From the NCBI GenBank assembly GCA_049976905.1, contig JBMFHI010000001.1, positions 27,149 to 91,148 on the forward strand: a DNA stretch of 64,000 bases, in the 5' to 3' direction. A model generated the notes under the pieces. The model worked only from the letters and a program-made list of their open reading frames with translations, had not been told where the DNA came from and made no database searches. This DNA is from Syntrophobacteraceae bacterium (lineage in GTDB: Bacteria; Desulfobacterota; Syntrophobacteria; Syntrophobacterales; Syntrophobacteraceae). A program made the position numbers and the translations under genes. Of the stretch, positions 10,412 through 38,108 are shown piece after piece (the first letter of the stretch is position 1; each line of letters begins with the position of its first letter).

Positions 10412-10427
10412 AGCAACAAGCTTGCCA
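10412..10427 (-). promoter_or_regulatory. sigma54 (-24/-12) promoter candidate for the regulator-GT2-OMP-MFP operon
   Basis: The minus strand reads TGGCAAGCTTGTTGCT, that is, TGGCA-N6-TTGCT with correct GG-N10-GC spacing. It lies ~105 nt upstream of the ATG at 10309. Confidence 0.55.
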
Positions 10428-10682: not shown

Positions 10683-11600
10683 TCAGGCTTTTTTGGCGCC
10701 AAAGACGCCGCTGCGGCTTCCAGCTATAGCCATTCGGGAGAGTATGCTGATGGCAAGAACAAATAAGATCACGAACAGGGCAGCGGCGTAGGCCAGCGCG
10801 TGGGCGCTCGAAAACGGCTCTGTGATAAAGGCCCAGATAGCGTAGGTGAGATATCCTATCGGCTCCCGGATCAGGCGGCCGTTCCACATGTAATTTGACC
10901 ACCCGGCAGTATAGAGAAGGGGTGCGGTCTCGCCTACCGCGATTGCCAATGCAAGCAGAACACCTGTCACAATGGATGGAAGCGCCATGCGCACGCAGAT
11001 GCTGAAGGCCACCCGGCCGTCGCCGGCTCCCAGTGCATAGGCGGACTCGCGCACTCCGCGCGATACCTGGTTGATCGCCATCTCGCTCGTTCGGCAAATA
11101 TAGGGCATGCAGATAATGGCAAGCGCAATGCTTCCCGCTGCCGTCGAAAACTGCCACCCAAGGGTGACAACCATCGTAATATAGCCAAAATAGCCGATCA
11201 CAATCGAAGGGACTCCGACAAGCACATCGCTTAAAAACCGGATTGTCGGGGCAAGAGGGCCGGTATCGAACATCGCTAGATAGATGCCCGCCGCAAGACC
11301 AGGGGGAACAGCGAGAAGGACCCCCCCCATGGCGAGCACCAGCGTGCCTTCGATAGCGTTTAGAAGACCTCCGCTCGTTCCTGAGGTTACGTGTGTAATC
11401 ACATGAAGGCTAAGAGCGCCGATGCCTCTCAGGAAAACGGTAAGAAGGATCGACAACATCGCGCTTCCAAGCAGAAGAAAGGCAAGCGTGCAAAGGCCCC
11501 ACCCTAAAACGTCTAATGTGCGACGGCGCAGGAGTCGAGAGTCCATATCATGACGCGAGCCTCCGGGCTTGACTGTAGTGTTGGTCAAAGTTGCGCTCAT
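10683..11600 (-). CDS. pstA: phosphate ABC transporter permease PstA (copy 1)
   Basis: Multi-TM permease with the EAA-like loop (YALGAGDGRVAFSI...). The preferred start, MSATLTNTT at 11600, overlaps the pstC stop (ATGA). The ORF track extends it to 11678. Confidence 0.85.
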   Translation of the reverse strand: MSATLTNTTVKPGGSRHDMDSRLLRRRTLDVLGWGLCTLAFLLLGSAMLSILLTVFLRGIGALSLHVITHVTSGTSGGLLNAIEGTLVLAMGGVLLAVPPGLAAGIYLAMFDTGPLAPTIRFLSDVLVGVPSIVIGYFGYITMVVTLGWQFSTAAGSIALAIICMPYICRTSEMAINQVSRGVRESAYALGAGDGRVAFSICVRMALPSIVTGVLLALAIAVGETAPLLYTAGWSNYMWNGRLIREPIGYLTYAIWAFITEPFSSAHALAYAAALFVILFVLAISILSRMAIAGSRSGVFGAKKA

Positions 11601-12703
11601 TTTGCCCTCACGCTTAGCTTTCCATCGTAATAAAGAAGGACTAGGGCCAACCCGTTGACAATAAGTGAAATCACGCAAAGCACCAGGGCCACCTCGGCAA
11701 GGGAGCGGACGGCCATGCCGGTCGGGTCCTGGAGAGCGCTGTCGAGCTGCGAGACTATAAAGGAAGCCATGGTGGAAATCGGCGCGTAGATGTTGCCCGG
11801 CAAATAGTTAAGGGCGTTGCCGCTGACCATGAGAACCGCCATTGTCTCGCCCAGCGCCCGTCCTGTCGCCAGTATGCTCGAACCTGCCAAAACCCGCCGC
11901 ACACCCGGCAGCAGGACCATGCGCACGGTCTCGAATCTGCTTGCTCCAAGCGCCATGGCGCTCTCGCGCAGTTTGGCAGGCTGGCTAACGAGCGCATCGC
12001 GCAGGGTGGCCGTTATCAGTGGCACTATCATCAGGGTGAGCACCAGGCCGGCGGTAAGCAACCCATAGCCGCTGCCCGAAGCACCGCCGAAAAACGGCAG
12101 GAAGCCCAACCTTTTCGCCAGGAAAGGGAAAAGATTATGCCCCAAAAAGGGGATCACGACCACGTAGCCCCAAAGCCCATAGACAACGCTTGGAATTGCG
12201 GCAAGCAGTTCGACAAAAAAAGAAAGCCAGGGCCGTAGAAAGGGGGGAGCGCCCTCGGCCAGAAACACAGCAGCCCCAACTCCTACCGGTACGGCGATGG
12301 AGATCGCAATGAGAGTGCTTAGCAAAGTTCCGACGATGAGGAACAATATCCCGTATTGGGCGCCGGGCAGGATCTGTTGGCCGTCTACGCTCACGGGATT
12401 GCCGTAGAGGCTTCCAAGGTTCCAGCTATTGTGAACCAGAAAACCTAAACCGTTTAGTCGCAAGGCCGGCCAGGCATAGACGGTGAGAAAGATAACGATT
12501 GCTACAAGGCTTGCCGCAACTATGCTGCCTAGCATGGCGGTAATGCGGCGAAAATTAAACGCGCCCCCGCCAAAGCGGGCAAGCGCTCGCAGCATCGACC
12601 AGGCGCCTTTGCTCCAAGCCTTGCCCGGAGTGGAAAAAGGCCGCTTGCCGGCGCTCAGGCTGCCGGCAAGCGCTTCACAAGTGTCTGGACGAGTCTCGTC
12701 CAT
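11597..12703 (-). CDS. pstC: phosphate ABC transporter permease PstC (copy 1)
   Basis: Multi-TM permease lying between pstS and pstA, containing ESAMALGASRFETVRMVLLP and GRALGETMAVLMVSGN. Confidence 0.85.
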   Translation of the reverse strand: MDETRPDTCEALAGSLSAGKRPFSTPGKAWSKGAWSMLRALARFGGGAFNFRRITAMLGSIVAASLVAIVIFLTVYAWPALRLNGLGFLVHNSWNLGSLYGNPVSVDGQQILPGAQYGILFLIVGTLLSTLIAISIAVPVGVGAAVFLAEGAPPFLRPWLSFFVELLAAIPSVVYGLWGYVVVIPFLGHNLFPFLAKRLGFLPFFGGASGSGYGLLTAGLVLTLMIVPLITATLRDALVSQPAKLRESAMALGASRFETVRMVLLPGVRRVLAGSSILATGRALGETMAVLMVSGNALNYLPGNIYAPISTMASFIVSQLDSALQDPTGMAVRSLAEVALVLCVISLIVNGLALVLLYYDGKLSVRAK

Positions 12704-12704
12704 G

Positions 12705-13823
12705 TTACTTTATCTTCGCAATCTGTTTTGAACTAAGCTCTACAATCGGCGCGGGAAGCGCAATGAAATGTACTTGCTGCATGAATTTTGGAGCATTGCC
12801 CCCCGTTGGACTGATCGCCCAGGTCAAAAACTTGCGTAAGGCCGCGGCGGTTTGCGGGGAGTCCTGTCTCGCCTTTATCATCACATACTCGTAATTGATA
12901 ATGGGGTAGGAGTCGGGACCGGGCGCGAAGATAAGGCTGATGCACTCGTTTGCCGGTGTCTTTGAAACCAGTGCCGCAGCGGCGGCCTTGGCGGTTTTTT
13001 CCGTGGGCAGTAAAAATTTCCCATCGTGGTTTTCGAGCATCGCTATGCCAAGCTTATCCTTTTTAATCGCATCCTGGTAGCTGGTGCCGATGTAGGAAAC
13101 CGTATAGGGGTTGTCTTTTGTCGCGGTTACCATGCCGGGATTTCCCTCGGCCCCAAGACCGCCGGGAACCGGAGGCCAGCTGACGGTCGTGCCGTATCCG
13201 GTGCCCTTGGACCACTCAGGCGTGCTAAATGTCAGGTACTGGGTGAAAATGAAGGTGTCGCCGCTTCCGTCCGTTCTGTGTACGGGGATTATCTCGTGAT
13301 GAGGCAGATCCACGCCGGGGTTTAGCTTCTTTAGCGTCGGGTCGTCCCAGAAGCGAATCTTGCCGCTGTAAATGCCTGCCAGCACCGGGCCGCTTAGCTT
13401 GATGTTCTTATCGTTTAGGCCCGGTAAATTGTAGTTTGCCATTTGCATCGAAATGCAAAGCGGTATGTTTAGCATGGGGTGCTGTTTCATGAGCGCATTG
13501 CTCATATAAGCATCAGAGGCGCCGATCTGGGCCAGGCCGGCAACCGACTGTGAAATGCCGGTGCCGCTTCCCGTCGATTGGGTGGTGATCTTAACGTTGG
13601 GATCGATTTGTGCGTATTGGGGAATCCAGATGTTAAAGAGCGGGTAAACCAGGCTCGAGCCGGTTTCCAGAAGACTTACCGTCTTTTCTGCCGCCCCTGC
13701 CTGGGGCGCGCCCATAAAAGAGCCCGCCGCGAGGCCAAGAGCCAGCACTCCGGCTGTCAAGATCGCCTTGTGCTTGCGGATAGAAATTGCTTTTTTGAAA
13801 AATGACACGTTTAGCTCCTCCAT
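12705..13823 (-). CDS. pstS: phosphate-binding protein PstS (copy 1, divergent type)
   Basis: Signal peptide, then LLETGSSLVYPLFNIW...STGSGTGISQ...GASDAYM...HRTDGSGDTFIFTQYL (PBP-type phosphate-binding motifs). Confidence 0.85.
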   Translation of the reverse strand: MEELNVSFFKKAISIRKHKAILTAGVLALGLAAGSFMGAPQAGAAEKTVSLLETGSSLVYPLFNIWIPQYAQIDPNVKITTQSTGSGTGISQSVAGLAQIGASDAYMSNALMKQHPMLNIPLCISMQMANYNLPGLNDKNIKLSGPVLAGIYSGKIRFWDDPTLKKLNPGVDLPHHEIIPVHRTDGSGDTFIFTQYLTFSTPEWSKGTGYGTTVSWPPVPGGLGAEGNPGMVTATKDNPYTVSYIGTSYQDAIKKDKLGIAMLENHDGKFLLPTEKTAKAAAAALVSKTPANECISLIFAPGPDSYPIINYEYVMIKARQDSPQTAAALRKFLTWAISPTGGNAPKFMQQVHFIALPAPIVELSSKQIAKIK

Positions 13824-13896
13824 TTTGATGTGATTTGGACTTTTTGGAAATAGTAATTAGCCGCTCAAGAGTTGATCCGGTTTCTAGCACCTGAGA

Positions 13897-13934
13897 GTTA
13901 CTCTGCTGTTACGACCTTGTTACGCTTGGGTTAA
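13897..13934 (-). promoter_or_regulatory. Pho box array for pstS copy 1 (four 11-bp-phased repeats)
   Basis: On the plus strand GTTAC occurs at 13897, 13908 and 13919 and GTTAA at 13930, exactly 11 bp apart. On the minus strand these read TTAAC/GTAAC/GTAAC/GTAAC, resembling PhoB half-sites (CTGTCAT). Confidence 0.6.
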
Positions 13935-14025
13935 GATCGAAGGCCACTATTTATCGGAGGGAGATATCCTGCGGCCTGAATGAGCTCTAAATTCGGGTTT
14001 TGATCGAAATGCTGCCCCCCGGATT

Positions 14026-14079
14026 TCCACGCACCGGTCACCTCAATGTCACAAACCTGTAACATTCTTTCTCTATCAT
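14026..14079 (+). promoter_or_regulatory. Pho box plus -10 element for pstS copy 2
   Basis: GTCAC at 14037, GTCAC at 14048 and GTAAC at 14059 are exactly 11 bp apart, and a degenerate TCCAC sits at 14026. TATCAT (14074-14079) lies 10 nt after the last repeat. Confidence 0.6.
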
Positions 14080-14164
14080 TAGGTAACTGGATTGCTCGTT
14101 ACTGTGGATAGTTTCAATAAGAAGGATATTCTGAAATATCTACCTTAAAGGAGGACGGAAAACG

Positions 14165-15235
14165 ATGAAAAGAGTTGCTCTCGCGCGTACTCTGTGTATT
14201 TCCACTGCCATGCTGCTCTGTGTCTTTACCGCAATGCCGGCTTTTGCCATGGACATTACCGGGGCAGGGGCGACTTTCCCTTATCCGATTTATTCCAAAT
14301 GGGCCCAGGCCTACCGGGATAAAACCGGCATCGGTCTAAATTACCAGTCGATCGGCTCCGGTGCTGGCATTAAGCAGATAGAAGCCAAAACCATCGATTT
14401 CGGTGCCTCCGACATGCCTCTTACAAAGGATGTGCTTGAAAAAAACGGTCTTCAGCAGTTCCCAACCGTTATGGGAGGAGAAGTCCTGGCGATAAACGTC
14501 GATGGGATCAAAAAAGGGCAGTTGAAACTAAACGGCCCGCTCATTGCCGATATCTATCTTGGCAAGATCAAAAAGTGGAGCGATCCGGCCATCGCTAAAC
14601 TCAACCCCGGCTTAAAGCTGCCCGATGAGCGCATTACCGTCATCCACCGTTCCGATGGCTCCGGCACAACCTTTATATTTACCAACTATCTTTGCAAAGT
14701 GAGCCCCCAATGGAAAAGTAAGGTCGGAAACTCCGTATCGGTTCAATGGCCTGCGGGTATGGGTGGCAAAGGAAATGCCGGCGTAGCAAGCTATGTTCAG
14801 CAGGTGCCGGGCTCCATCGGCTATGTCGAGTATGCCTACGCCCTTAACAATAATATAGCCTACGCCTTGCTCTATAACCACGACGGAAAAGTCGTCGAAC
14901 CTTCCAGCAAGAACTTTCAGGCCGCGGCCGCGGGAGCTGACTGGAAAAGCGCCCCGGGATTTCGCGTGATTCTCACCGATGAACCGGGCGCCGATAGCTG
15001 GCCCATTACCGGGGCCACTTTCATCTTGATGCATAAAGTCCAGGATAATCCTGCCCGCGCCCTGGAAGTGCTTAAATTCTTTGCCTGGGATTACGCCCAT
15101 GGTGGCCAAATGGCTGAACAACTCGCATATGTACCTTTCCCCCCTGGCGTGGTAAAAATCATCGAGGACTCATGGGCAACGATTAAGTCCAAAGAGGGAA
15201 CCCCAGTGTGGAAAGCTAACGCTGCGGGCAAATAA
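14165..15235 (+). CDS. pstS: phosphate-binding protein PstS (copy 2, enterobacterial type)
   Basis: Signal peptide, then ITGAGATFPYPIYSKWA...YQSIGSGAGIKQ...DFGASDMPL...HRSDGSGTTFIFTNYL. Confidence 0.9.
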   Translation: MKRVALARTLCISTAMLLCVFTAMPAFAMDITGAGATFPYPIYSKWAQAYRDKTGIGLNYQSIGSGAGIKQIEAKTIDFGASDMPLTKDVLEKNGLQQFPTVMGGEVLAINVDGIKKGQLKLNGPLIADIYLGKIKKWSDPAIAKLNPGLKLPDERITVIHRSDGSGTTFIFTNYLCKVSPQWKSKVGNSVSVQWPAGMGGKGNAGVASYVQQVPGSIGYVEYAYALNNNIAYALLYNHDGKVVEPSSKNFQAAAAGADWKSAPGFRVILTDEPGADSWPITGATFILMHKVQDNPARALEVLKFFAWDYAHGGQMAEQLAYVPFPPGVVKIIEDSWATIKSKEGTPVWKANAAGK

Positions 15236-15292
15236 GAAGCTTGATTACACTTTTGCCTGCTCTTGGCAGGGACGCGGATATAATTGCTTTTG

Positions 15293-15324
15293 GGCAAGGG
15301 GGGATCATTGTGCCCCCCGTTGCC
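15293..15324 (+). other. intercistronic stem-loop between pstS and pstC (copy 2)
   Basis: GGCAAGGGGGG (15293-15303) pairs with CCCCCCGTTGCC (15313-15324) with one bulged base and a 9-nt loop. There is no immediately adjacent T-run. Confidence 0.4.
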
Positions 15325-15347
15325 GCTTAAAGAGGTTTTTTCGACTT

Positions 15348-16349
15348 ATGGCCAACGGGGGAAAGGTCCTAACCGAGGAAATAACGGTGGCGCCACGCCG
15401 TATTTCCAGATCTAAGCGCTCATACTCCATGGCGGATCAAATTTTTAAAAGCATCACCAGGTTCTTCGCCTTTTTGGTGCTTCTTCTTATGGCCGCGATA
15501 ATCGTCTCGCTATTTATCGGAGCCCTGCCCGCGCTAAAGAAATTCGGCCTCGGCTTTATCGGTTCCACGGCCTGGAATCCGGTTACCAACGTCTTTGGCG
15601 GACTCGTACCGATCGTTGGAACGCTCGCAACCTCGGCCATCGCCCTTCTTATCGCCGTGCCCGTAAGCTTTGGTATTGCCATGTTTCTTACGGAAATGTG
15701 TCCCGCACGGCTTAGAAGGCCCCTGGGCACCACCATTGAACTGCTCGCCGGCATTCCGAGCATTATTTACGGCATGTGGGGCCTGTTCGTATTCGCGCCT
15801 GTTTTCAGCCGCCACGCAGAACCCTGGATTGATTCCCATCTTGGCCGCCTGCCTCTTATCGGCCCCTTTTTTTCCGGCCCTCCCATCGGCATAGGAGTCT
15901 TGACCGCGGGGCTGATCCTTTCGATAATGGTAATTCCCTTTATCGCGGCCGTAATGAGGGATGTCTTCGAGGTTGTCCCCCACATGCTCAAGGAATCGGC
16001 CTACGGGCTTGGAGCCACTACGTGGGAGGTGGTAAGAAACATCACTTTGCCTTACGCCAGGGTCGGTGTGGTGGGCGGCATAATGCTGGGGCTTGGACGC
16101 GCAATAGGGGAAACCATGGCCGTAACCTTCGTGATAGGCAACTCTCACAGTCTGCATGTCTCCCTTCTCATGCCGGGCAACTCCATTGCCTCAACTCTTG
16201 CCAACGAATTCACCGAAGCGGTAGGAAAAATCTATATCTCATCGCTTATAGAGTTAGGCTTGTTTCTCTTTATCATTACCTTCATCGTGCTGGCTCTGGC
16301 AAAGCTGCTGCTGATAAGGCTTTCTAGAATGGAGGGTAAGAGAGCTTGA
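15348..16349 (+). CDS. pstC: phosphate ABC transporter permease PstC (copy 2)
   Basis: Multi-TM permease with [20 protein letters not shown] and [16 protein letters not shown]. It sits between pstS and pstA. Confidence 0.9.
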
Positions 16350-17209
16350 AGGAGAACAAAGTGGTATTGATTTCCATCCAGAGCCGACGGCGCGCCGTAA
16401 ACTCTCTTGCTCAGATCGCAGCGCTGCTGACCGTTTTTTTTGGCCTCTTCTGGCTTGGCTGGATACTTATGACACTGTTGCAGCATGGTCTACCGGGAAT
16501 CAGCCTCAAACTGTTTACCGAGCTTACCCCGCCGCCGGGAAGTCCCGGGGGGATTATAAATGCGATCGTGGGGACCTTCTTGATCGTAATGCTTGCCACC
16601 CTTTTAGGCACTCCCGTAGGAATCCTCGCCGGCGTCTATATGGCCGAATACGGACAAACAGGCTGGCTTTCTCCCGTTACGGGCTTTGTTAACGACATCT
16701 TGCTAAGCGCTCCCTCCATTGTGCTGGGGCTGTTCGTTTATGAAACGTACGTTATCTGGGTCGGCCATTTTTCAGGCATTGCCGGTTCACTGGCCTTGGG
16801 TCTTCTGGTGATTCCCGTGGTCGTAAGGACTACGGAAAACATGCTCAAGATGGTGCCCAATCGTTTGCGCGAAGCCGCGGCTGCTCTGGGAACCCCGCAG
16901 TGGAAGATTGTAACGATGATTACGCTTAGAGCCTCGCGCGCGGGCATAATTACGGGCATTCTGCTCGCGGTCGCCAGAATTAGCGGAGAAACCGCGCCCT
17001 TGCTTTTTACCGCTTTAAACAACATGTTCTGGAGCAAACTTACCCAGCCTACCGCAAATCTTCCCGTGATGATCTTCGATTACGCGATGAGTCCTTACAA
17101 AGACTGGCATACTCTCGCATGGGCCGGAGCCCTGCTTATAACCATGGGCGTTCTGGGGTTGAATATCCTGGCCAGATCCTTTTTTAAACAAAAGCCTTTG
17201 GGCCGTTAA
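16346..17209 (+). CDS. pstA: phosphate ABC transporter permease PstA (copy 2)
   Basis: Multi-TM permease with [19 protein letters not shown] and [14 protein letters not shown]. It overlaps the pstC stop by 4 nt. Confidence 0.9.
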
Positions 17210-17234
17210 AACTTTTGCAAAGGTGTGTGAAGAT

Positions 17235-18005
17235 ATGACGGCAAAGCTGCCAAAACCAAAAATTGAAGTTCGCAACCTCGATTTTTTCTACGGTGAAACC
17301 CAGGCGTTAAAAAATATCTCCCTCGATATCCCGGAATTTCACGTAACGGCTTTCATCGGCCCTTCAGGCTGCGGAAAATCCACTTTGATTCGCACCTTCA
17401 ACAAGATCTATAAAATCTATCCCCATCAAAGGGCAACCGGCCGGATCGTTGTCGACGGGGTTGACATCCTCGAAGACGATAGCGATCTAAATAGGCTTCG
17501 AGCCAGGGTCGGAATGGTTTTTCAGCAGCCCACGCCTTTCCCCATGTCGATCTATAACAACATAGCTTTTGGCGTAAAGCTCTACGAAAAACTAAGCAAA
17601 AGCGGTATGGATGAAAGAGTGGAATGGGCACTGCACAAGGCCGCGCTCTGGGATGAGGTTAAAGATGTTCTTCACCGCAGCGGCTACGGACTTTCCGGAG
17701 GCCAGCAGCAGCGCTTGTGCATTGCGCGGGCCATAGCCGTAAAACCCGAGGTCCTGCTTCTCGATGAACCGGCCTCCGCCCTGGACCCTATCTCCACTGC
17801 GCGCATAGAAAACCTCGTAACCGAACTAAAAAAAGAGTATACCATCGTTATCGTTACCCACAACATGCAGCAGGCAGCCAGAGTCTCGGACTTCACAGCC
17901 TACATGTACCTTGGAGAGTTGATCGAATTTGCCGGAACCGAACTCATCTTTACGCGCCCCGCGCGAAAGGAAACCGAGGATTACATAACCGGCAAGTTCG
18001 GCTAG
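17235..18005 (+). CDS. pstB: phosphate ABC transporter ATP-binding protein PstB
   Basis: Walker [13 protein letters not shown] signature LSGGQQQRL and Walker [12 protein letters not shown]. The ATG at 17235 has AGGTG 9 nt upstream. The ORF track starts at GTG 17223. Confidence 0.95.
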
Positions 18006-18252
18006 AGCTGGGTAAAATGAGCTCCGGCCCCCTCGGCCGCCTGGAGAGTCCCAGGTCTATTTGCCCATTGGGAAAAAGGATGAGGGGGGAAGATTAATTT
18101 TTCCAGCTTTGATGGTCGCAACCTCCTTCGCGGTAGAGCAAAACGGGTTGCGCGCCCTATCCAAACGGGTATATATTTTTAAAAAACGGCATTTTCGCCT
18201 TCGATGGTTTTGCCTTGAGCAGATCGCCTGGAAGGCCCTTTAAATAATCGTT

Positions 18253-18942
18253 ATGACCCCTTGTTCCTTACAAAGGCAAACTATGCAGAGGCGTATGTTC
18301 GAAAACCTCGCGGTGGATATGCATCTCCATGAAAGGGAGGCCGCCCGGAAGGGGTTTAGCTTAGTTTGCGGGATTGATGAAGCCGGTCGCGGACCTCTGG
18401 CTGGTCCCGTCGTTGCCGCGGCGGTGATTTTGCCAAGGAATGTTTGCCTTCCCGGCATTAACGATTCCAAAAAGCTCACATCTGAACAAAGAGAAGGTTT
18501 TTTTGAAAAAATTATGACGCGGGCCACTGCCGTGGGACTAGGAGTTGTTGACAACTGCGAAATTGACCGGATAAACATTCTACAGGCAACCTTTCGGGCC
18601 ATGATCGCGGCGGTTGCGCAGTTGTCCGTCGCGCCGGATTTGCTCCTTATCGACGGTCCCTACAAACTCCCCTTGCCCCTTGCTCAAAAGGGAATTCCAC
18701 ACGGGGATGCGCTCTCCATTTCCATCGCCGCGGCTTCCATTATTGCCAAGGTCCATCGCGACAGGTTGATGTGCGGGTTCCACGAGGACTTTCCTCAATA
18801 TGGGTTTAACTCGCACAAGGGCTACGGAACGGCGCGCCACTATGAGGCCCTGCGAAAATTCGGGCCATGTCCGCTTCACAGGGTCACTTTTAGGGGTGTT
18901 TCCCGGTGTTTGGAGCCAAATGACAACGAAGAGCCGCTATGA
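18253..18942 (+). CDS. rnhB: ribonuclease HII
   Basis: GIDEAGRGPLAGPVVAAAV, NDSKKL and IIAKVHRD...HKGYGT motifs. The start is uncertain; a later Met at 18295 is possible. Confidence 0.9.
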   Translation: MTPCSLQRQTMQRRMFENLAVDMHLHEREAARKGFSLVCGIDEAGRGPLAGPVVAAAVILPRNVCLPGINDSKKLTSEQREGFFEKIMTRATAVGLGVVDNCEIDRINILQATFRAMIAAVAQLSVAPDLLLIDGPYKLPLPLAQKGIPHGDALSISIAAASIIAKVHRDRLMCGFHEDFPQYGFNSHKGYGTARHYEALRKFGPCPLHRVTFRGVSRCLEPNDNEEPL

Positions 18943-19288
18943 CAAAGGAAAAGAGGGCGAGACGGTGGCTGCCGATTATCTTTGCGAATGCGGCCTCAAA
19001 ATCCTTGATCGCAACTTCCGCTGTCCTTTGGGAGAAATCGATCTGATTGCAAAAGATGGCAGGACCATCGTATTTGTCGAAGTTAGATCCAGGAAGGCCG
19101 ATGATTTTCGCAGCCCGGAAGAATCGCTTGCCGCTCCAAAATTCAGGCGTATTACCAAAGCCGCTCTCTGGTATTTGAAACGCCAGGGGACTGCCGATTC
19201 CTTCATGCGCTTTGACGTCGTCGCCATTAGCTGGACTGGGGAAAAACCCCAAATAAGCTGGATAGTAAATGCCTTCCAACCACGATGA
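18920..19288 (+). CDS. yraN: YraN-family (UPF0102) endonuclease-like protein
   Basis: GKEGETVAADYL...ILDRNFRCPLGEIDLIA...IVFVEVRSR is the typical YraN core. The preferred start is the ATG at 18920, and the upstream part of the tracked ORF overlaps rnhB. Confidence 0.85.
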   Translation: MTTKSRYDKGKEGETVAADYLCECGLKILDRNFRCPLGEIDLIAKDGRTIVFVEVRSRKADDFRSPEESLAAPKFRRITKAALWYLKRQGTADSFMRFDVVAISWTGEKPQISWIVNAFQPR

Positions 19289-28367: not shown

Positions 28368-28676
28368 TTACCAGGTACCCATTACCGCAGGAGTTTGCAG
28401 CTGATTACCATTGGTGGGGCAGTCGACCGCATGAACACCTCGGTAGTCTGTGTAGGCCGGCGAAGAGACACAAGAATAGTTGGCTACTGCCAGCTCGGTC
28501 GAGGTGGCCTCATTGGCCGCGGCCGCAGCGCCCGTGCCCTGATAGGTCGAATCAGCCAGAAGCATGGCCCCGCTTGTATGGTTAACCGGAACCGCTGTCG
28601 CCGCAAAAGCACACGGAACCAGAGCTATCGCCAACGCCATTGCCATCAACATGGTCATAATCGTTCTTGCCTTCAT
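28368..28676 (-). CDS. small secreted protein of unknown function (102 aa)
   Basis: AAGGAG lies 8 nt upstream of the ATG. Sec-type signal peptide MKARTIMTMLMAMALAIALVPCAFA-AT. The mature ~76 aa are Ala/Thr/Gly-rich with two Cys and a C-terminal Trp. The gene is flanked by a sigma54 promoter and a strong terminator. Confidence 0.6.
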   Translation of the reverse strand: MKARTIMTMLMAMALAIALVPCAFAATAVPVNHTSGAMLLADSTYQGTGAAAAANEATSTELAVANYSCVSSPAYTDYRGVHAVDCPTNGNQLQTPAVMGTW

Positions 28677-28724: not shown

Positions 28725-28740
28725 AGCAACGAGCATGCCA
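28725..28740 (-). promoter_or_regulatory. sigma54 (-24/-12) promoter of the small secreted-protein gene
   Basis: The minus strand reads TGGCATGCTCGTTGCT, against the consensus TGGCACG-N4-TTGCW. It lies ~50 nt upstream of the ATG at 28676. Confidence 0.65.
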
Positions 28741-28980: not shown

Positions 28981-30411
28981 CTATCTGGCGATCTTGTGCT
29001 TTTGAAAAAGAGCGTAGAGTCGGGATTGAGACAAACCAGAGATACGGCAAGCCTCTTTGATGTCGCCTTCGCAAAGCCCCAGCAGTTCGTTTAGATAATT
29101 TTTTTCGGCCTGCAAAGACGCCGCTTCTCGAAATTCCTGGAGGCTGGGAAGCGCAGGCGGCCCATTGCGAGCCTGGCCTGCCTCGGCGGGCAGGCTGTGA
29201 TTTACCGCCGCCCTGGCTTTTTGCACCCGGATATCCACGGGAAGGTGCTTGGGAAAAAGTGTGGGTTCAAAATGAGCTGCCGCAAGAGCCCGATCCAGGG
29301 TATTGACCAGTTCGCGAATGTTTCCCGGCCAGGAATAGGCCTTGAGCGTATCTACAAATTCCGGCGAGCACCCCTTGGCCCTGAGGCCGTACTTTTCGCA
29401 AAATCGGTCTATGTGATGCCGTGCAAGTTCCTTTATATCCACGGATCTTTCCCGCAGAGGAGGCAGCTCGATCACAAAGGATTTCAAGCGAAAAAGCAGA
29501 TCTTCGCGAAAATGGCCTTCCTGCGCCATTTTGTCCATGTTTCGATTTGTGGCCGCTACCACGCGGAAATCACTTCCAAGCTCGTTTTTGCTTCCCACGG
29601 GTCGAAACCGGTGTTCCTGGAGCACGCGCAGGAAAGATTTTTGAATTACCGGGGGCAGTTCGCCCACTTCGTCGAGGAAAAGCGTTCCGCCTCCGGCTTG
29701 CCGAATGAGACCGTCTGTAGCTTTTTCGGCACCTGTAAAGGCTCCCTTTTCATGTCCGAAGAGTACGCTTTCAACCAGTGTTTCGGGAAGCGCCGCGCAG
29801 TCGACTATAACGAAAGGCCCTTTTGCCCTCGCACTGTTGGTATGAATCGCCCGGGCGAAAAGTTCCTTGCCTGTGCCCGTCTCGCCTGTTATCAGCACGC
29901 TTGTCTCGCTTGCCGCAGCCTGGGCCAGAAGGTCCAGGCAATCCATGAGCTTGGGGCTCGTACCGATTATTTCGTCGCGCTTTAGCGCGATGATGCTCTT
30001 GGCCCCTGTTCGCGCGTTTTTTTTCTGCTTTCGATATTCGAGCGCTCTTAACAAAGGCAGGCTCATCTCCCGGGTGGAAGAGCCCTTTTCAATGTAATCC
30101 CACGCGCCGCTCTTAATGGCGATCTCCGCGCCGTCCGGATCTCCAAAGCCGGTGATGATGATAACCTCGGGGCAGGAGGGCACGGACTGGATTTTGGGCA
30201 GGGCCTCCAGGCCGTTGCCGTCGGGCATGCGCACATCGAGAAATACCACGTCGATATCTGCTGAGCGCGCCAGTTCCAGGCCTTCAGAAAGGCTAGAGGC
30301 GCAAACCGGATTATGCTCCACGCGTGTGACCATCCGCGAAAGCGCATAACACATCGACTCGTCGTCATCGACAATGAGAACGTTTGCCACTACGCACTCA
30401 CCCGAGCACAA
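28981..30411 (-). CDS. sigma54-dependent (NtrC-family) response regulator
   Basis: Receiver (VLIVDDDESM...VFLDVRMPDGNG), AAA+ sigma54-interaction domain (GETGTGKELFARAIH, GAFTGA, LFLDEVGEL, FREDLLFRL) and a C-terminal Fis-type HTH (ACRISGLSQSRLYALFQKH). An alternative GTG start at 30390 overlaps the kinase stop. Confidence 0.9.
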   Translation of the reverse strand: MCSGECVVANVLIVDDDESMCYALSRMVTRVEHNPVCASSLSEGLELARSADIDVVFLDVRMPDGNGLEALPKIQSVPSCPEVIIITGFGDPDGAEIAIKSGAWDYIEKGSSTREMSLPLLRALEYRKQKKNARTGAKSIIALKRDEIIGTSPKLMDCLDLLAQAAASETSVLITGETGTGKELFARAIHTNSARAKGPFVIVDCAALPETLVESVLFGHEKGAFTGAEKATDGLIRQAGGGTLFLDEVGELPPVIQKSFLRVLQEHRFRPVGSKNELGSDFRVVAATNRNMDKMAQEGHFREDLLFRLKSFVIELPPLRERSVDIKELARHHIDRFCEKYGLRAKGCSPEFVDTLKAYSWPGNIRELVNTLDRALAAAHFEPTLFPKHLPVDIRVQKARAAVNHSLPAEAGQARNGPPALPSLQEFREAASLQAEKNYLNELLGLCEGDIKEACRISGLSQSRLYALFQKHKIAR

Positions 30412-32585
30412 TTATTGTCAAGAATTTTGCGTATTATCCCGGCCAGTTCAAGGCTGCAAAGGGGTTTCATCCTAACCTCCCGTATTCCTATGAGCGCTGC
30501 CTCCCTCGGAGCTATCCCCTCGGCCGAATCGGGGCTAAATCCGGTGCACAGCACGATTGGAATTTCGGGCCGAATCCGCAGGGCTTCCCTCGCCAGTTCG
30601 ATACCCGTCATGCGCGGCATGCTCTGATCCGTAATGATAAGATCGAACTCCTCGGCCCGCGCGCGAAAGACTTCCAAGGCTTCCAAGCCGTTTCTAAACA
30701 CCTCGGCCTGATAGCCCAGCCGCTTTAGCATCTTCTCGCCCGCGTAAACAAGGTCTTCCTCGTCATCGACAAACATTATCCTCTCGCTTCCCCTGTGAAC
30801 AGCGTTGCACCTGGGCGCCTCGACCGGTTCCCCCGCAGCTTCGATGCCGGGCAAAAACACCTCGAAAGTCGTTCCCTTCCCCGGTTGGCTGGAAACGGTG
30901 ATATCTCCCCCATGACTCATCACGATCCCATGGGCCACGGAAAGTCCCAGCCCGGAGCCCTCCCCGTGTTTCTTGGTCGTAAAAAAAGGATCGAAAATCC
31001 TTTCGATGGTATTTTGATCCATCCCATGTCCCGTATCGCTGACTGTGAGTTTGACGCAGTAATCGCTCTCCACGCTCTGAAGGGAAGTGATTTTGGAAGG
31101 CTCGGCCACTACCTCGGAGAGCCGGCAGGGTTTTGAATTGCGCCCCCTGGGGGCATGAGCGGCTTTCAAAGGGTCGATACTCATCCTCGACAGGCTCACC
31201 TGTAGTATGCCCTCCTTTTCGCGCATCGCGTGAGCGGCATTGGTGCAAAGATTCATCACCACCTGGATAATCTGGGTGGGATCGGCCAGGATGGTGGCCG
31301 CTCCGGCAGAAATGTTCTGTCTTATCTCTACGTTTGCAGGCAAGGAGGCTCGAAGGAATTTGAGAAACTCTTTAACAAGGGGTTCAATGTGAATGGGACG
31401 CCGCTCCTGTTCGCTGTGCCGACTGAAGGTTAGAATCTGCTTTATCAGCAGTTTGCCCCGGTTGCCCGCTTTTAGTACACGCTCGAGGTCTTCGCGGGCC
31501 GTGCTGCCCTCGGGGGTCTCTTCCAGGGCAAACTCCGCACAGGATAGAATCGCCCCCAGGATATTATTGAAATCGTGGGCTATGCCGCCGGCCAGAGTTC
31601 CCAGCGCTTCCATTTTTTGGGACTGGCGCAGTTGCTTCTGAAGGTGTTCTTCCTGGGAAACATCGCGGCACACAAAGATATAACTTGTCTCCTGCCCTGA
31701 ATCGTCCCGGAAAGGCGATACACGCGCATCGATTTCCAAAATCAGGTCCCCGCTGTCTCCTTTTGCCGCAAAACGGCTGTTCCACGATCCCCCGCGCGCC
31801 ATGGCTTCTGTCATGACCTTGAAAATCCAGCCCTTTTTGCCTTCTCTGCCCAGATCGTAAATAGTCTTTCCGCTCGCCCACTGGCGGTCGCAACCGCTGA
31901 TGCGTTCAAGCGACAAGTTGATGTATTGCACTTCGCCCCGGCTATCGAAGATGGCTATGCCCTCTTCGAGTTGTTCGCAGGCCGTGGCGAGCAGCATCCG
32001 TTCCTTTTCTTCGCATTCTCGCCTGGCTTTGAGCCTCAAGGCCCTTAAGCCGTAGGAAAGATCCTCGGCCAGGTCCTTTAGCAGTTCGAGTTCCTCGGTA
32101 TCGAAGGCATCGGGTTCCTCCGCGTAAATCCCAAGAGCCGCAAAGGATGTTGCGTTTTCATCGAGAAGGGGAAGAGAGACCGTGGAACCAAAATTGCGCC
32201 TGAGGGCTTCTTCTTGCCAGTAACTGCATCCCGCGTGCTGCGTGATATCCTGGATGACGCTGGGCGCTCCAGTGCGTAGAGCCGTGGTGGTTGGGCCGCA
32301 TTTTCTCTCCGAATCCGTCCACAGAGCATCGAGCTTTTGCAGATAGCCGTCTTCAACGCCCCATTGCGCCGCGGGTCGAATCAACATTTCCCCGTCCTGC
32401 TGGGTAAGGCCTACCCAGGCAAACCTGTAGCCGCCTGTCTCCACAATGGTTCGGCATATTTCCTTCATCAATGCGTCTTCATTCTCCGCCCGGACAAGAG
32501 CCCGTTGGCAACCCCTAAGAGTTTCAAGCGCACGGCTGGCTCTTTGAAAACAATAGCTCGGTATCTGTCCGGACTCATTGGCCAT
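30390..32585 (-). CDS. cytoplasmic hybrid sensor histidine kinase (GAF-PAS-HisKA-HATPase-receiver)
   Basis: GAF-like N-terminus, a PAS-like segment, H-box GGIAHDFNNIL, N/G boxes (VMNLCTNAAHA, DTGHGMD, GSGLGLS) and a C-terminal receiver (IMFVDDEE...LIITDQSMPRMTG). No TM segment. Confidence 0.9.
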   Translation of the reverse strand: MANESGQIPSYCFQRASRALETLRGCQRALVRAENEDALMKEICRTIVETGGYRFAWVGLTQQDGEMLIRPAAQWGVEDGYLQKLDALWTDSERKCGPTTTALRTGAPSVIQDITQHAGCSYWQEEALRRNFGSTVSLPLLDENATSFAALGIYAEEPDAFDTEELELLKDLAEDLSYGLRALRLKARRECEEKERMLLATACEQLEEGIAIFDSRGEVQYINLSLERISGCDRQWASGKTIYDLGREGKKGWIFKVMTEAMARGGSWNSRFAAKGDSGDLILEIDARVSPFRDDSGQETSYIFVCRDVSQEEHLQKQLRQSQKMEALGTLAGGIAHDFNNILGAILSCAEFALEETPEGSTAREDLERVLKAGNRGKLLIKQILTFSRHSEQERRPIHIEPLVKEFLKFLRASLPANVEIRQNISAGAATILADPTQIIQVVMNLCTNAAHAMREKEGILQVSLSRMSIDPLKAAHAPRGRNSKPCRLSEVVAEPSKITSLQSVESDYCVKLTVSDTGHGMDQNTIERIFDPFFTTKKHGEGSGLGLSVAHGIVMSHGGDITVSSQPGKGTTFEVFLPGIEAAGEPVEAPRCNAVHRGSERIMFVDDEEDLVYAGEKMLKRLGYQAEVFRNGLEALEVFRARAEEFDLIITDQSMPRMTGIELAREALRIRPEIPIVLCTGFSPDSAEGIAPREAALIGIREVRMKPLCSLELAGIIRKILDNNCARVSA

Positions 32586-32694
32586 GGCATATCTCCAGGC
32601 TTATAAGACAATGGCTGTCACACTTCATCTGATTTCATCCCTTCCCTGGTTTGGGGGTTGTCCGGAAGAACAGACCCACTAAGAAGAAAATTAA

Positions 32695-32709
32695 GCATGT
32701 ATCGTGCCA
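32695..32709 (-). promoter_or_regulatory. sigma54-like promoter candidate upstream of the kinase/regulator operon
   Basis: The minus strand reads TGGCACGATACATGC, with a perfect -24 element and ATGC at -12. It lies ~110 nt upstream of the ATG at 32585. Confidence 0.45.
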
Positions 32710-34928: not shown

Positions 34929-37010
34929 ATGCCAAACCATCTCGCAGGCGAAAAAAGTCCTTACCTGCTCCAGCACGCTCAAAACCCCGTCGACTGGTAT
35001 CCCTGGGGCGAAGAGCCTTTTGAGAAGGCACGGTTGGAGCAAAAGCCCATATTTCTTTCGATAGGCTATTCGACCTGCCACTGGTGTCACGTGATGGAGC
35101 ATGAGTCTTTCGAAGATGAGGAAGTCGCCTCGATTCTAAACAAGGCCTTCGTGTGCATAAAAGTTGATCGGGAAGAGCGCCCCGACATTGATCAGGTATA
35201 CATGAACGTCTGCCAGGCCGCCACGGGCCGCGGCGGTTGGCCGCTTTCCATCTTTATGGGCCAGGACAGAAAACCTTTCTACGCCGGTACCTATTTCCCT
35301 CGAAAAAGCCGGATGGGCATGGTGGGCCTTTTGGAACTGGCCCAAAAAATCTCCGAACTCTGGGCGCAGGATCGACAAGAGCTCGAAAAAATTAGCGAGC
35401 GTTTGTCGCGCGCCATCGAACCGGGTAAATCCCTTCTCTCCCATCAGTTGCCGGGACCCGGTCTTCTGGAAACGGCCCATAAAAGCCTTGCACAATCCTT
35501 TGATCCCGTCTGGGGTGGTTTTGGAAAAGCTCCCAAGTTCCCGGGCCCTCACAATCTAAGTTTTCTTCTTCGAAGAAATTGGCGAGATCCCGACTCCGAT
35601 GCCCTGCCAATGGTCGAAAAAACCCTTTTGTCCATGCGCTCCGGCGGGATTTTTGACCAGGTCGGTTTTGGCTTTCACCGCTATTCGGTTGACGAAAAAT
35701 GGATCGAGCCCCATTTTGAAAAAATGCTCTACGACCAGGCGATGCTCGCGATTGCCTATAGCGATGCTTTCCTTGTAACCGGAGATGCGCGATACGCCAA
35801 AGTGACAAGGGAAATTTTCGAATATGTAATGCGCGAGATGCTAAGCCCGGAAGGCGGCTTCTACAGCGCCCTGGACGCCGACAGCGAAGGGTCCGAGGGG
35901 GCTTTCTATACCTGGAGACCTGAGCAGGTGAGTGAGGTCCTGGGTAAAGACCAGGCCGCAATCTTCTGCCGGGCTTATGGAATTACAGGCAGGGGCAATT
36001 TCGCCGATGGCTTGAGTATACTCCATATAGCCGAGCCTTTCGATAAACTTGCCGATAGCCTTGCCATGAGCGTTTCCGAGCTGGAAAAGCTCCTTGAAGC
36101 CTTGCGTCTGCGCCTCTTTAATGCCCGCGAAAAAAGAGTCCACCCGTTTAAAGACGATAAAATCGTTGCCGCATGGAACGGCCTTATGATAGCCGCGCTT
36201 GCAAGGGGCGCTCAGGCGCTTGGCGAAAACCTTTATGCTCAAGCCGCCCAAAGGGCGGCCCATTTTCTGCTCTCCCGGATGCGAAACGATAACGGACGGT
36301 TTTACCGCCGCTACCGCGGCAACGAAGCCGCCGTTGCCGCCTACGCCGACGACTATGCCTTTTTCATTTGGGGCCTGATTGAACTCTACGAGACCGTTTT
36401 CGACGTGACCTGGCTGGCTCAAGCCGTCAATCTCCAGGAAGAGATGATCAGGTTGTTTTCCGCCCCCGACGGTGGTTTCTATTTCGTTGGAAATGACGCG
36501 GAACCGATGATCGTGGCTGAAAAACCCCTCTATGACGGCGCTCTTCCTTCGTCTAATTCCGTCGCGGCCATGAACTTGCTGCGGCTTGCAAGGATGACGG
36601 GAAATGCTGAATTTGAAAAACAGGCGGATTTGCTCCTAAGAGGTCTTGCCCGGCAGGTTGCCTCTAATCCCGCCGCTTTCACCCATCTGCTGCAAGCCCT
36701 GGATTTTGCCCACGGACCATCCCTTGAAATACTTTTAGCAGGGGATCTTTCCCTCCCGGCGACAAGAAAAATGTTGGAAGCCATTAAACCCATCTACTCC
36801 CCAAACCGTGTGCTGCTGCTCAAACAAAGCGGTAGAGCCGGGGCCGAGCTGGCAAAAATCGCCCCTTTTACCGCCTCCGTACCGGAGGCCCCAAGGGATG
36901 ACTCCGCGCTCGCATACGTGTGCCAGGGGTTTAGTTGTCAAAATCCCGTTAAAAGCGTCTCGGAATTGAGCGCGATTTTGAAAGGCGAAAAACTACCCAT
37001 GGCGGGATAG
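34929..37010 (+). CDS. thioredoxin-domain protein of the YyaL/DUF255 family
   Basis: [29 protein letters not shown]...[14 protein letters not shown], followed by a long alpha/alpha-toroid-like C-terminal region. AAGGAG lies upstream of the ATG. Confidence 0.85.
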
Positions 37011-37053
37011 TGGCGCAATATGGCATGAATATGGCGTGATACCGGCGTGATTG
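37011..37053 (+). promoter_or_regulatory. four tandem ~11-bp direct repeats (possible activator binding array)
   Basis: TGGCGCAATA / TGGCATGAATA / TGGCGTGATACC / GGCGTGATTG begin immediately after the stop codon of the preceding (YyaL/DUF255-family) gene. They lie 63-105 bp upstream of the sigma54 promoter at 37115. Confidence 0.4.
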
Positions 37054-37114
37054 TCTTTGTTTCGTACTGACGCTAACTATTGGAAAACACAGCGAGAATA
37101 AAAAGTGGATACTC

Positions 37115-37130
37115 TGGCACGTATGTTGCT
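37115..37130 (+). promoter_or_regulatory. near-consensus sigma54 (-24/-12) promoter
   Basis: CTGGCACGTATGTTGCT, against the consensus YTGGCACGrNNNTTGCW. This is the best match in the window. Confidence 0.7.
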
Positions 37131-37140
37131 CTAAACTCAA

Positions 37141-37214
37141 TGCACAAAGAGAAACCAACTCTTTCCTCCTCTTGAGCTAACCGGTTCTAGCCCCTCCGGT
37201 TAGCTCTTTTTTTT
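37141..37214 (+). ncRNA. candidate sigma54-dependent small RNA or terminating leader (~74 nt)
   Basis: The predicted start lies ~12 nt after the -12 GC. The 5' part is unstructured and contains CUUUCCUCCUCUU (37161-37173). It ends in a perfect 11-bp hairpin followed by U8. Confidence 0.4.
37174..37214 (+). terminator. rho-independent terminator
   Basis: GAGCTAACCGG (37174-37184) pairs with CCGGTTAGCTC (37196-37206) across an 11-nt loop, followed by TTTTTTTT (37207-37214). Confidence 0.85.
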
Positions 37215-37244
37215 ACCCCAATTTTGTTAAGGAGAATGTCTGAT

Positions 37245-38108
37245 ATGGGCAAGACTCTTCTTGGTATTTGCGCCTCTCCCAGAAAACTTGGAAACTGTGA
37301 ACTTTTTATAAAAGAAATTTTTAGACGGATGGGTGATGGCTGGGATCTTCGCATGGTTCGCCTTCCCGAGTTCGACATTAAACCGTGTAGAGCCTGTTAC
37401 CAATGCCTTTTCGACCAGCCGTGCCCTCTTAAGGACGATTTCCTTGCGGTACTAAGTGCTCTGGCGGATGCCGACGCCTACGTCGTTGCCGCTCCGGCCT
37501 ATTTTCTCTCGGCCAATAGCAGTCTAAAAGTTTTTTTGGACCGTGGGCTTCAATTCTATGGTTTTATCGACCGGTTGTGGGCAAAACCTGGCGCGGCGGT
37601 GGCCATAGCCGGGATTGAAGGCAAGGAGGGTAGCGCCAAGCGCGATGTGGAAAGTTTTATAAAACTTAGCCTGGGCGATTTGCGCGGGTCCGCGGTTGTC
37701 TATGGGGCACTGCCGGGCGAAACCCTTCTGTCTGCTTTAAACCTGGAAACAGCTAAACAGCTTGCTGGCGCTATCCTTAATCCCGCCATGAGGCAAAGCT
37801 CCGCCGGTCCTGTTTGCCCCCTATGCGGGGGCGATACATTCAGGTTTGTGGACACCGTCCGGGCCAGGTGCATGCTCTGCTCCGGTTCCGGTCCCTGGGA
37901 GTTTAAAGATGGTTCCATGGTCTTCCATATCGAACCGGGGGAGCATCCAATTTTTCTAACCAAAGCCGATGCCCTGGGTCATGCCGATTGGCTAAGAGGA
38001 ATGAAAGATAAGTTTCTTGCTCGCAGGCAGGAACTTAAAGAGATCGTAAAACCCTATCTTGGGATGGGTTCGTTCATTGAAAGCAAAAGAAGGCAAGAGA
38101 AGGTGTGA
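37245..38108 (+). CDS. iron-sulfur flavoprotein (Isf)-like NAD(P)H-dependent FMN reductase with C-terminal zinc-ribbon region
   Basis: Flavodoxin-like LLGICASPRKLGN. Compact Cys motif CRACYQCLFDQPC (Cx2Cx2Cx5C) as in Isf proteins. The C-terminal part has CPLCGG...CMLCSG. The ATG at 37245 has AAGGAG 10 nt upstream. The ORF track starts at TTG 37224. Confidence 0.7.
   Translation: MGKTLLGICASPRKLGNCELFIKEIFRRMGDGWDLRMVRLPEFDIKPCRACYQCLFDQPCPLKDDFLAVLSALADADAYVVAAPAYFLSANSSLKVFLDRGLQFYGFIDRLWAKPGAAVAIAGIEGKEGSAKRDVESFIKLSLGDLRGSAVVYGALPGETLLSALNLETAKQLAGAILNPAMRQSSAGPVCPLCGGDTFRFVDTVRARCMLCSGSGPWEFKDGSMVFHIEPGEHPIFLTKADALGHADWLRGMKDKFLARRQELKEIVKPYLGMGSFIESKRRQEKV

Follow-up and report, generated by a model that had tools for sequence, protein, structure and literature searches.

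A conserved repeat, promoter and terminator module predicted to encode a sigma54-driven small RNA in Syntrophobacteraceae

The stretch of DNA analysed here, called the window below, comprises 64,000 nucleotides of the genome of a Syntrophobacteraceae bacterium (GenBank assembly GCA_049976905.1, contig JBMFHI010000001.1, positions 27,149 to 91,148). A gap of 213 bases between a gene for a DUF255/YyaL-type protein and a gene for an Isf-like flavoprotein is taken up in this window by a set of direct repeats, a sigma54 promoter, the sequence of a predicted small RNA (sRNA) and an intrinsic terminator. Other genomes and metagenomes supply another 105 copies of the same arrangement. These observations are best explained by an autonomous gene for a regulatory RNA of about 70 nt, which would be driven by sigma54 and a bacterial enhancer-binding protein (bEBP) and would act in trans by pairing with ribosome-binding sites. 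Taken as a whole, this explanation is likely. Its first part, a conserved sigma54-driven sRNA gene, is highly probable on the comparison of the copies. For its second part, the action of the RNA by anti-Shine-Dalgarno pairing, the arguments for and against are about equally balanced. An earlier note on this DNA had proposed a sigma54-dependent sRNA or, instead, a cis-acting attenuator of the Isf-like gene. The first proposal is supported by the joint conservation of the parts of the module, by covariation in the terminator and by the autonomy of the unit from the Isf-like gene, all of which come from sequence comparison.

The module and its conservation

Two sets of related loci have been gathered. 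The genome set results from a profile scan with an alignment of the Isf protein, one genome per species, in which at least 80 loci are listed. The metagenome set results from a scan that is independent of Isf and uses the pattern AACTCTTTCCTCCTC-N12-18-CTAGCCCC; it comprises 61 contigs. The module precedes the Isf-like gene in 45 of the 80 genome loci listed and is likewise present in the 61 metagenome contigs. Its parts follow each other in the order TGGCGYGATT array, -24/-12 promoter, invariant string AAGAGAAACCAACTCTTTCCTCCTC, hairpin with the loop YYCTAGCCCCKCC and T-run. The pyrimidine-rich seed is the same in all 45 genome loci, and the loop motif CTAGCCCC is also invariant in the genome set. 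As these loci were gathered through the Isf protein rather than through the seed motif, the invariance of the RNA motifs in them is not an artefact of selection.

The promoter of the window, TGGCACGTATGTTGCT, is the sole perfect match to TGGCAC-N5-TTGCW in the 64 kb, where 0.07 such matches are expected from shuffled sequences; four sites elsewhere in the window have one mismatch. The earlier note had called it the best sigma54 promoter of the window, which it is. A strict pattern with invariant TGG-A and TTGC finds the promoter in 101 of the 105 copies that have enough upstream sequence, and the remaining four are near-matches. The distance from the end of TTGC to the motif CTCTTTCC is 26-31 nt in the 105 copies. 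The conserved block begins at 37146, about 17 nt past the GC of the -12 element, the point at which a sigma54 transcript is expected to begin, and it stops at the T-run (alignments A2 and A3). Measured against the window, the RNA core keeps 92% identity and the DNA of the Isf gene 70%, while the spacer before the promoter (the 75 nt upstream of it, aligned globally) reaches only 60%, which is near background. The start of the RNA is predicted from the promoter geometry at 37141 with an uncertainty of 3 nt on either side.

The repeats have a period of 10-11 bp and lie 62-115 bp upstream of the promoter. The earlier note had placed the repeats, the promoter and the hairpin with its terminator where they are found here, and its reading of tandem repeats of about 11 bp upstream of the promoter stands. 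The array, however, holds five repeats at 37000-37053 and not four at 37011-37053. Repeat arrays precede the promoter in the related loci too and are strand-specific: in the region from -140 to -40 of 99 loci, the forward strand has on average 2.4 copies of GGCGNGAT per locus and the reverse strand 0.05. No other array of this motif is present within the window. The weakly conserved A/T-rich spacer between the array and the promoter would be the region of DNA looping and may possibly contain a site for IHF.

The predicted RNA of 74 nt (37141-37214) has a folding energy of -23.2 kcal/mol (z = -4.9), with CCUCCUCUU unpaired, and its terminator hairpin alone has -18.4 kcal/mol (z = -6.5). In the minimum-free-energy fold the seed is unpaired from CCUCCUC onward. 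Both the perfect 11-bp hairpin with T8 and the single-stranded seed of the earlier note are borne out in this fold. A second C-rich motif (CCCCUCC; CUAGCCCC(U/G)CC), which the note had missed together with the fifth repeat, is located within the terminator loop of 11 nt, UUCUAGCCCCU. When conservation and covariation are followed along 37141-37214, as the note had suggested, the RNA body of about 65 nt is found to be near-invariant. In the copies, 99% of the cells of the terminator helix are paired, and 5 of its 11 base pairs are changed on both sides in a compensatory manner. The T-run that follows the hairpin has a length of 4-11 in the related copies. A mini-hairpin near the 5' end (AAAGAG/CUCUUU), which folding also predicts, has been discounted as a structure, as its variants break the pairing and never compensate. 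No open reading frame (ORF) is contained in the RNA region on either strand, and none is conserved among the copies.

A covariance model (R1) built from 44 copies gives scores of 71-103 bits for the copies of the genome set and of 57-103 bits over all copies. It found no copy in the other 35 Isf loci, where the exact motif is missing, and Isf loci without the RNA are also without the sigma54 promoter. By this model, copies thus score at least 57 bits or are missing altogether. Nothing significant was found with R1 outside loci of the Syntrophobacteraceae type. Almost all carriers are labelled as Syntrophobacteraceae or as metagenome-assembled genomes of an unclassified 'delta proteobacterium', and the source of the window is itself assigned to Syntrophobacteraceae by the homologues of its Isf-like protein. 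One cultured organism, Desulfoferrobacter suflitae DRH4, is among the carriers, with its unit at about 2755-2870 of locus L041 in NZ_JAIBKA010000006.1; complete genomes such as OY970341.1 also have the unit. The most divergent copies, L113 and L123 (57 and 67 bits), have an altered 5' block, an insertion of GTCTC after the seed and a loop that is one base shorter. They keep the same seed, loop motif and sigma54 promoter, have unrelated genes downstream, and may represent a second lineage or a paralogue.

Table 1. Features of the locus, with positions in the window or, for the last entry, in the related loci named
Feature	Position	Strand	Basis or remark
DUF255/YyaL-type thioredoxin-domain gene	34929-37010	+	Pfam assignment; stop codon TAG at 37008-37010
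Putative activator array upstream of the promoter, with five direct TGGCGYGATT-type repeats in phase	37000..37053	+	read from the sequence and with repeat finders
Repeat 1, TGGCGGGATAG	37000-37010	+	overlaps the DUF255 stop codon
Repeat 2, TGGCGCAATA	37011-37020	+	
Repeat 3, TGGCATGAATA	37021-37031	+	
Repeat 4, TGGCGTGATAC	37032-37042	+	
Repeat 5, CGGCGTGATTG	37043-37053	+	
A/T-rich spacer between array and promoter, weakly conserved	37054..37114	+	alignment of upstream regions
Sigma54 (-24/-12) promoter TGGCACGTATGTTGCT	37115..37130	+	GG at 37116-37117, GC at 37128-37129
Predicted small RNA, about 70-74 nt	37141..37214	+	start from promoter geometry, 3' end in the T-run
A-rich 5' block AAAGAGAAACCAA, A-R-N triplets	37146..37158	+	at least 90% conserved in most columns
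Pyrimidine seed, anti-Shine-Dalgarno-like, CTCTTTCCTCCTC (DNA), CUCUUUCCUCCUC (RNA)	37159..37171	+	predicted single-stranded, G-poor
Terminator hairpin, 11-bp stem and 11-nt loop UUCUAGCCCCU	37174..37206	+	arms GAGCTAACCGG at 37174-37184 and CCGGTTAGCTC at 37196-37206
T8 tract of the intrinsic terminator	37207..37214	+	read from the sequence
Isf-like flavoprotein gene	37245..38108	+	Pfam, FMN_red domain; Cys-rich C-terminal part
Location of the 66-aa membrane-protein gene and its start region	L021 5931-5948; L027 6240-6257; L094 11377-11394; L115 about 7427; L015 about 5705; L016 about 6117; L129	minus in L129	

Autonomy of the unit and probable read-through into the Isf-like gene

The Isf-like gene of the window has its ATG 30 nt past the T-run and its ribosome-binding site, AAGGAG, at 37229-37234, exactly as the earlier note had read it. 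In the relatives the distance from the T-run to the ATG is often 20-45 nt. Such a short distance leaves no space for a promoter of Isf, which suggests that the gene is transcribed by read-through. Isf is thus probably co-expressed through read-through of the sRNA terminator, and the promoter would have two outputs.

The same observation can be read in another way. The unit might be a terminating leader, that is, a cis-acting attenuator which gates sigma54 transcription into the Isf-like gene and leaves the short RNA as a by-product. The tight gap, which a separate Isf promoter does not fit, is what such a leader would have, and the linkage to Isf is strong: the gene is co-oriented directly downstream in all 45 genome loci and in 44 of the 57 independently gathered metagenome copies with enough downstream sequence, and the linkage persists where the upstream DUF255 gene is replaced. 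Isf is, however, absent in 13 of these 57 copies, several of which have a convergent gene instead, so that there is nothing to attenuate. The copies without Isf retain the repeats and the promoter. In L093, L096, L104, L112 and L114 the next gene is convergent and encodes a CxxCxxCC (PF03692) protein, in L111 it is a convergent gene for a response regulator, and a transposase-like gene comes next in L131 and L138. The locus L141 contains the whole unit twice (6619-7420): two complete units stand in tandem with a period of 356 bp, and neither lacks repeats, promoter or terminator of its own. A gene pair for a histidine kinase and a response regulator of the bEBP type lies directly upstream of them and Isf downstream.

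The folding of the RNA also speaks against the attenuator. No antiterminator is predicted: without the 3' arm the 5' part of the RNA reaches only -7.3 kcal/mol (z = -0.25), and in the predicted fold the terminator arm has no partner in the 5' region. When the read-through leader is folded, no pairing is seen between the CCUCC seed and the ribosome-binding site of Isf. Besides, the invariance of the seed and the loop far exceeds the needs of a terminator. The copies without Isf, those with convergent neighbours and the tandem copies, together with the missing antiterminator, argue that the unit is autonomous and not merely a leader, and the unit 37000-37214 is judged from these comparisons to be a gene of its own. 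An attenuator as the whole explanation is therefore unlikely; what stands of this part of the earlier proposal is the probable read-through into Isf. Attenuation is likely to be a secondary role beside the function of the sRNA.

Several observations on the neighbourhood may be added. The convergent CxxCxxCC gene of the five loci named above encodes a protein of about 310 aa with a putative metal-chelating domain (PF03692, YkgJ-like) and is the second recurrent neighbour of the unit. Its stop codon is located about 10-110 nt from the end of the sRNA terminator, which is so close that the hairpin may terminate both genes. The repeat array of L141 has an inverted copy as well (TGGCGCGATTC ... GAATCCCGCCA). 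In one sub-clade (L005, L008, L011, L012, L019, L020 and L021) the element CAACCTCTTTC(A)GGAG is present in the 30-50 nt before the Isf ATG. It abuts the ribosome-binding site of Isf, resembles the start of the sRNA seed, CAACTCTTTCC, and may either be left over from a duplication of the unit or sequester the Shine-Dalgarno sequence locally.

Activator, candidate targets and proposed mode of action

By putting the parts of the module together, it is possible to describe how the gene might work. A bEBP would bind to the TGGCGYGATT array and activate the RNA polymerase containing sigma54 at the promoter (37115-37130). Transcription would start near 37141, and most transcripts would end at the hairpin and its T8 tract (37174-37214). 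The product would consist of the A-rich 5' block, the single-stranded seed CUCUUUCCUCCUC and the C-rich CUAGCCCCUCC, displayed in the loop of the terminator. This RNA would then pair in trans with purine-rich Shine-Dalgarno sequences (GGAGG or similar to GGGGAAAGAG) and block the initiation of translation, probably with the help of Hfq. Read-through transcripts would extend into the Isf-like gene and thus place Isf under the same signal. The A-rich block AAAGAGAAACCAA with its A-R-N triplets is a candidate site for the distal face of Hfq. The succession of this block, the seed, the loop CUAGCCCCUCC and the U-tail corresponds to the established anatomy of sRNAs of the Hfq type that pair with ribosome-binding sites, and it is by this analogy that the pairing and the involvement of Hfq are proposed.

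Besides Isf, two genes have been considered as targets. Among the translation start regions of the window, that of the pstS-like gene at 14165 pairs best with the RNA (-23.5 kcal/mol), with an additional match of 9 nt after the AUG. This candidate was rejected as a chance match, since the extra complementarity is missing in nine orthologous loci, one of them 92% identical. The second gene is found 2-3 kb downstream of the sRNA in seven loci, between Isf and gatA, and encodes a protein of 66 aa with two predicted membrane helices (MRWDILAV...); its locations are given in Table 1. Its start region, AAGGGG(G)AAAGAGAAAUG (also AAGGGG(G)AAAGAGAAATG; AAGGGGGAAAGAGAAAUG), is complementary to the seed over 10-12 bp, and the complementary site is more conserved than the rest of the 5' untranslated region of the gene. 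The gene is a possible target, to be taken as a lead rather than a result.

The pstS-like gene is part of a pair of phosphate-type ABC transporter clusters which face each other at 10683-19000 of the window. One consists of this gene (14165-15235) and of permease genes (15348-17209) on the plus strand, the other of a second PBP_like_2 gene (12705-13823) and a permease gene (11597-12703) on the minus strand.

A number of points weigh against a trans-acting RNA under sigma54 control. Transcription itself, its start site, the 3' end and the dependence on rpoN/sigma54 are predictions from sequence. The metagenome copies were picked by an exact pattern, and the invariance of seed and loop in that set exists by construction. 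Among the loci, no bEBP gene accompanies the unit consistently. No target is established: the best candidate in the window, the pstS-like gene, fails in its orthologues, the gene of the 66-aa membrane protein is absent from the window, and the conserved site of that gene could simply be a strong ribosome-binding site. The Isf start regions of 44 loci with the RNA and 35 loci without it show no significant difference in complementarity (p = 0.085, duplex energies). Finally, a near-invariant stem and loop is unusual for an sRNA that acts by plain base pairing and could mean that the RNA is recognised by a protein.

This last point leads to another explanation, in which the RNA binds a protein as a sponge, decoy or cofactor, or titrates another RNA, instead of pairing with ribosome-binding sites. 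The body of 65 nt, the terminator stem and the 11-nt loop included, stays near-invariant while the proteins of the family drop to about 53% identity, and neither a terminator nor a seed would need so constant a stem and loop. The two spaced C/U-rich motifs and the A-rich block also resemble a binding surface with multiple sites, and the lack of an established conserved mRNA target is in line with such a function. On the other hand, no motif of a known bacterial RNA-binding protein is recognised in the RNA, which has neither GGA repeats of the CsrA type nor a match in Rfam. A CCUCC motif in a single strand or a loop is the classical signature of sRNAs of the RsaE/RoxS type that target ribosome-binding sites, and there is one translation start region with 10-12 bp of complementarity in several loci. 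A protein-binding or RNA-titrating function in place of pairing thus appears improbable, slightly more so than the attenuator.

A bolder variant would make of the unit a switch with two outputs under a single enhancer-dependent promoter, the RNA serving as a broad damper of translation instead of controlling a few targets, and Isf being expressed by regulated read-through. The single-stranded anti-Shine-Dalgarno motif and that of the loop would both compete with the tail of the 16S rRNA for strong ribosome-binding sites, and the invariance of stem and loop would reflect a dedicated protein that sets the ratio of RNA to Isf output. We regard this variant as improbable.

Two remaining explanations have hardly any probability. 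According to the first, which the earlier note had foreseen, there is no separate gene and the hairpin is the mere 3' end of the DUF255/YyaL mRNA, with the sigma54 match and the repeats arising by chance. The hairpin does lie on the same strand, 164 nt past the DUF255 stop codon, and DUF255 is the upstream neighbour in most loci. This reading is contradicted by the conservation of promoter, spacing and repeats in about 105 copies, by the presence of the module without DUF255 upstream (L031, L041, L046-L051, L054 and many metagenome loci), by the rarity of perfect promoter matches per window and by the region between stop codon and promoter, which is variable where the RNA body is invariant. 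The second, that the conserved sequence serves a minus-strand ORF of 69 aa (37158-36949), does find this frame in the ORF listing of the window, with a TTG start and, 6 nt before it, GAGGAGG, the reverse complement of the seed and a perfect Shine-Dalgarno sequence, but the frame varies from 4 to 133 aa in 107 copies (about half of them below 20 aa), its start codon is lost in 14 copies, and its coding region, affected by indels, is less conserved than any other part of the locus.

The trans-acting sRNA remains the preferred explanation, and some observations on sigma54 control in the window bear on its surroundings. The window has a gene pair of its own for a histidine kinase and an NtrC-type bEBP (28981-32585, minus strand), which is only 34% identical to the pair that adjoins the sRNA in L141. 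A sigma54 promoter with one mismatch, TGGCATGCTCGTTGCT, is present at 28725-28740 on the minus strand, about 35 nt before an ORF of about 100 aa, which extends from the ATG at 28675 to about 28371 on the same strand, begins with a signal-peptide-like N-terminus (MKARTIMTMLMAMALAIALVPCAFA...) and is followed by a clear terminator, a hairpin and T-run near 28340-28310 (minus strand). As this ORF is located just downstream of the kinase and bEBP pair, it may be the local target of the pair. Two other sigma54-like sites with one mismatch are found on the minus strand, one at 32694-32709, about 110 nt upstream of the gene for the GAF-PAS histidine kinase (30390-32585, minus strand), and one at 10412-10427, about 100 nt upstream of a gene for a protein with TackOD1 and GGDEF-like parts (8900-10309, minus strand).

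Related systems and meaning for the family

A search with Rfam 15 (cmscan) found no family at E <= 10 in 36900-37350 and, over the whole window, none at the gathering score, and no description of this RNA was found in the full-text literature on the seed sequence, on Syntrophobacter or on sigma54 sRNAs. The predicted RNA is a new and sharply delimited family within the regulatory sRNAs that depend on enhancers and sigma54. Its mechanism would not be new in kind, given that Vibrio, Pseudomonas, enterobacteria and Desulfovibrio are already known to have sRNAs under sigma54 control.

The Qrr1-5 RNAs of Vibrio, which form the Qrr family of Rfam and depend on LuxO, sigma54 and Hfq, are similar in several respects. 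They too are encoded by small genes that stand alone, with a -24/-12 promoter preceded by bEBP sites, and their short products likewise end in an intrinsic terminator and have a single-stranded seed that hardly varies. The variable copy number of the Qrr genes can be compared to the tandem pair in L141, and their occasional adjacency to the activator gene to the histidine kinase and bEBP pair upstream of that tandem. The two families nevertheless share neither sequence nor structure, as the lack of an Rfam match at E <= 10 indicates, and they belong to different phyla. The LuxO sites are inverted repeats, whereas those found here are direct TGGCGYGATT repeats of 10-11 bp, and the seed is here a CCUCC anti-Shine-Dalgarno motif.

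The C-rich sRNAs of the RsaE/RoxS type in Firmicutes target ribosome-binding sites. They resemble the RNA described here in having several C-rich motifs, in a single strand and in a hairpin loop, that fit Shine-Dalgarno sequences of the GGAGG or GGGG kind. Their sequence is unrelated, again with no Rfam match for this RNA, and they are transcribed from a sigma-A promoter with repressors, in contrast to the predicted control by sigma54 and a bEBP; the pairing proposed here would be their counterpart. Pxr of Myxococcus xanthus, a small deltaproteobacterial RNA with a regulatory role and a presumed dependence on an NtrC-like activator, has a different architecture. No homology to it was found and Rfam gave no match, so that the relation is an analogy at most. 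The terminated sRNAs that derive from riboswitch or attenuator leaders and act in trans are comparable in that one promoter yields a short RNA and a read-through mRNA, the gene following here after 30 nt. They differ in that the present unit has no ligand-binding or antiterminator fold and occurs also without a co-oriented gene downstream.

The nearest precedent in the literature, compared by description, comes from the same broad group of sulfate reducers and syntrophs, the former Deltaproteobacteria. In Desulfovibrio vulgaris, sigma54-dependent noncoding RNAs such as Dv_sRNA2 are encoded downstream of the bEBP genes DVU0653 and DVU0679; they combine a two-component bEBP with a sigma54 promoter, and their function is unknown (PMC3333781, PMC4641369). 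These RNAs adjoin the bEBP gene, whereas the unit described here is usually located between DUF255 and Isf and has an adjacent bEBP only in L141.

In peatlands, wetlands and digesters the Syntrophobacteraceae have key roles as propionate-oxidising syntrophs and as sulfate reducers, and to our knowledge almost nothing is known about their post-transcriptional regulation. The module represents a very strongly conserved sRNA family in which promoter, activator sites, seed and terminator can all be read from the sequence. Since one carrier, Desulfoferrobacter suflitae DRH4, is in culture, the proposal is directly testable. The RNA would add a family to Rfam, and the TGGCGYGATT array would provide a handle on the regulon of the putative bEBP. 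The finding would also tie sigma54 signalling to the control of translation, in the neighbourhood of a redox flavoprotein (Isf-like) and a thioredoxin-like protein (DUF255).

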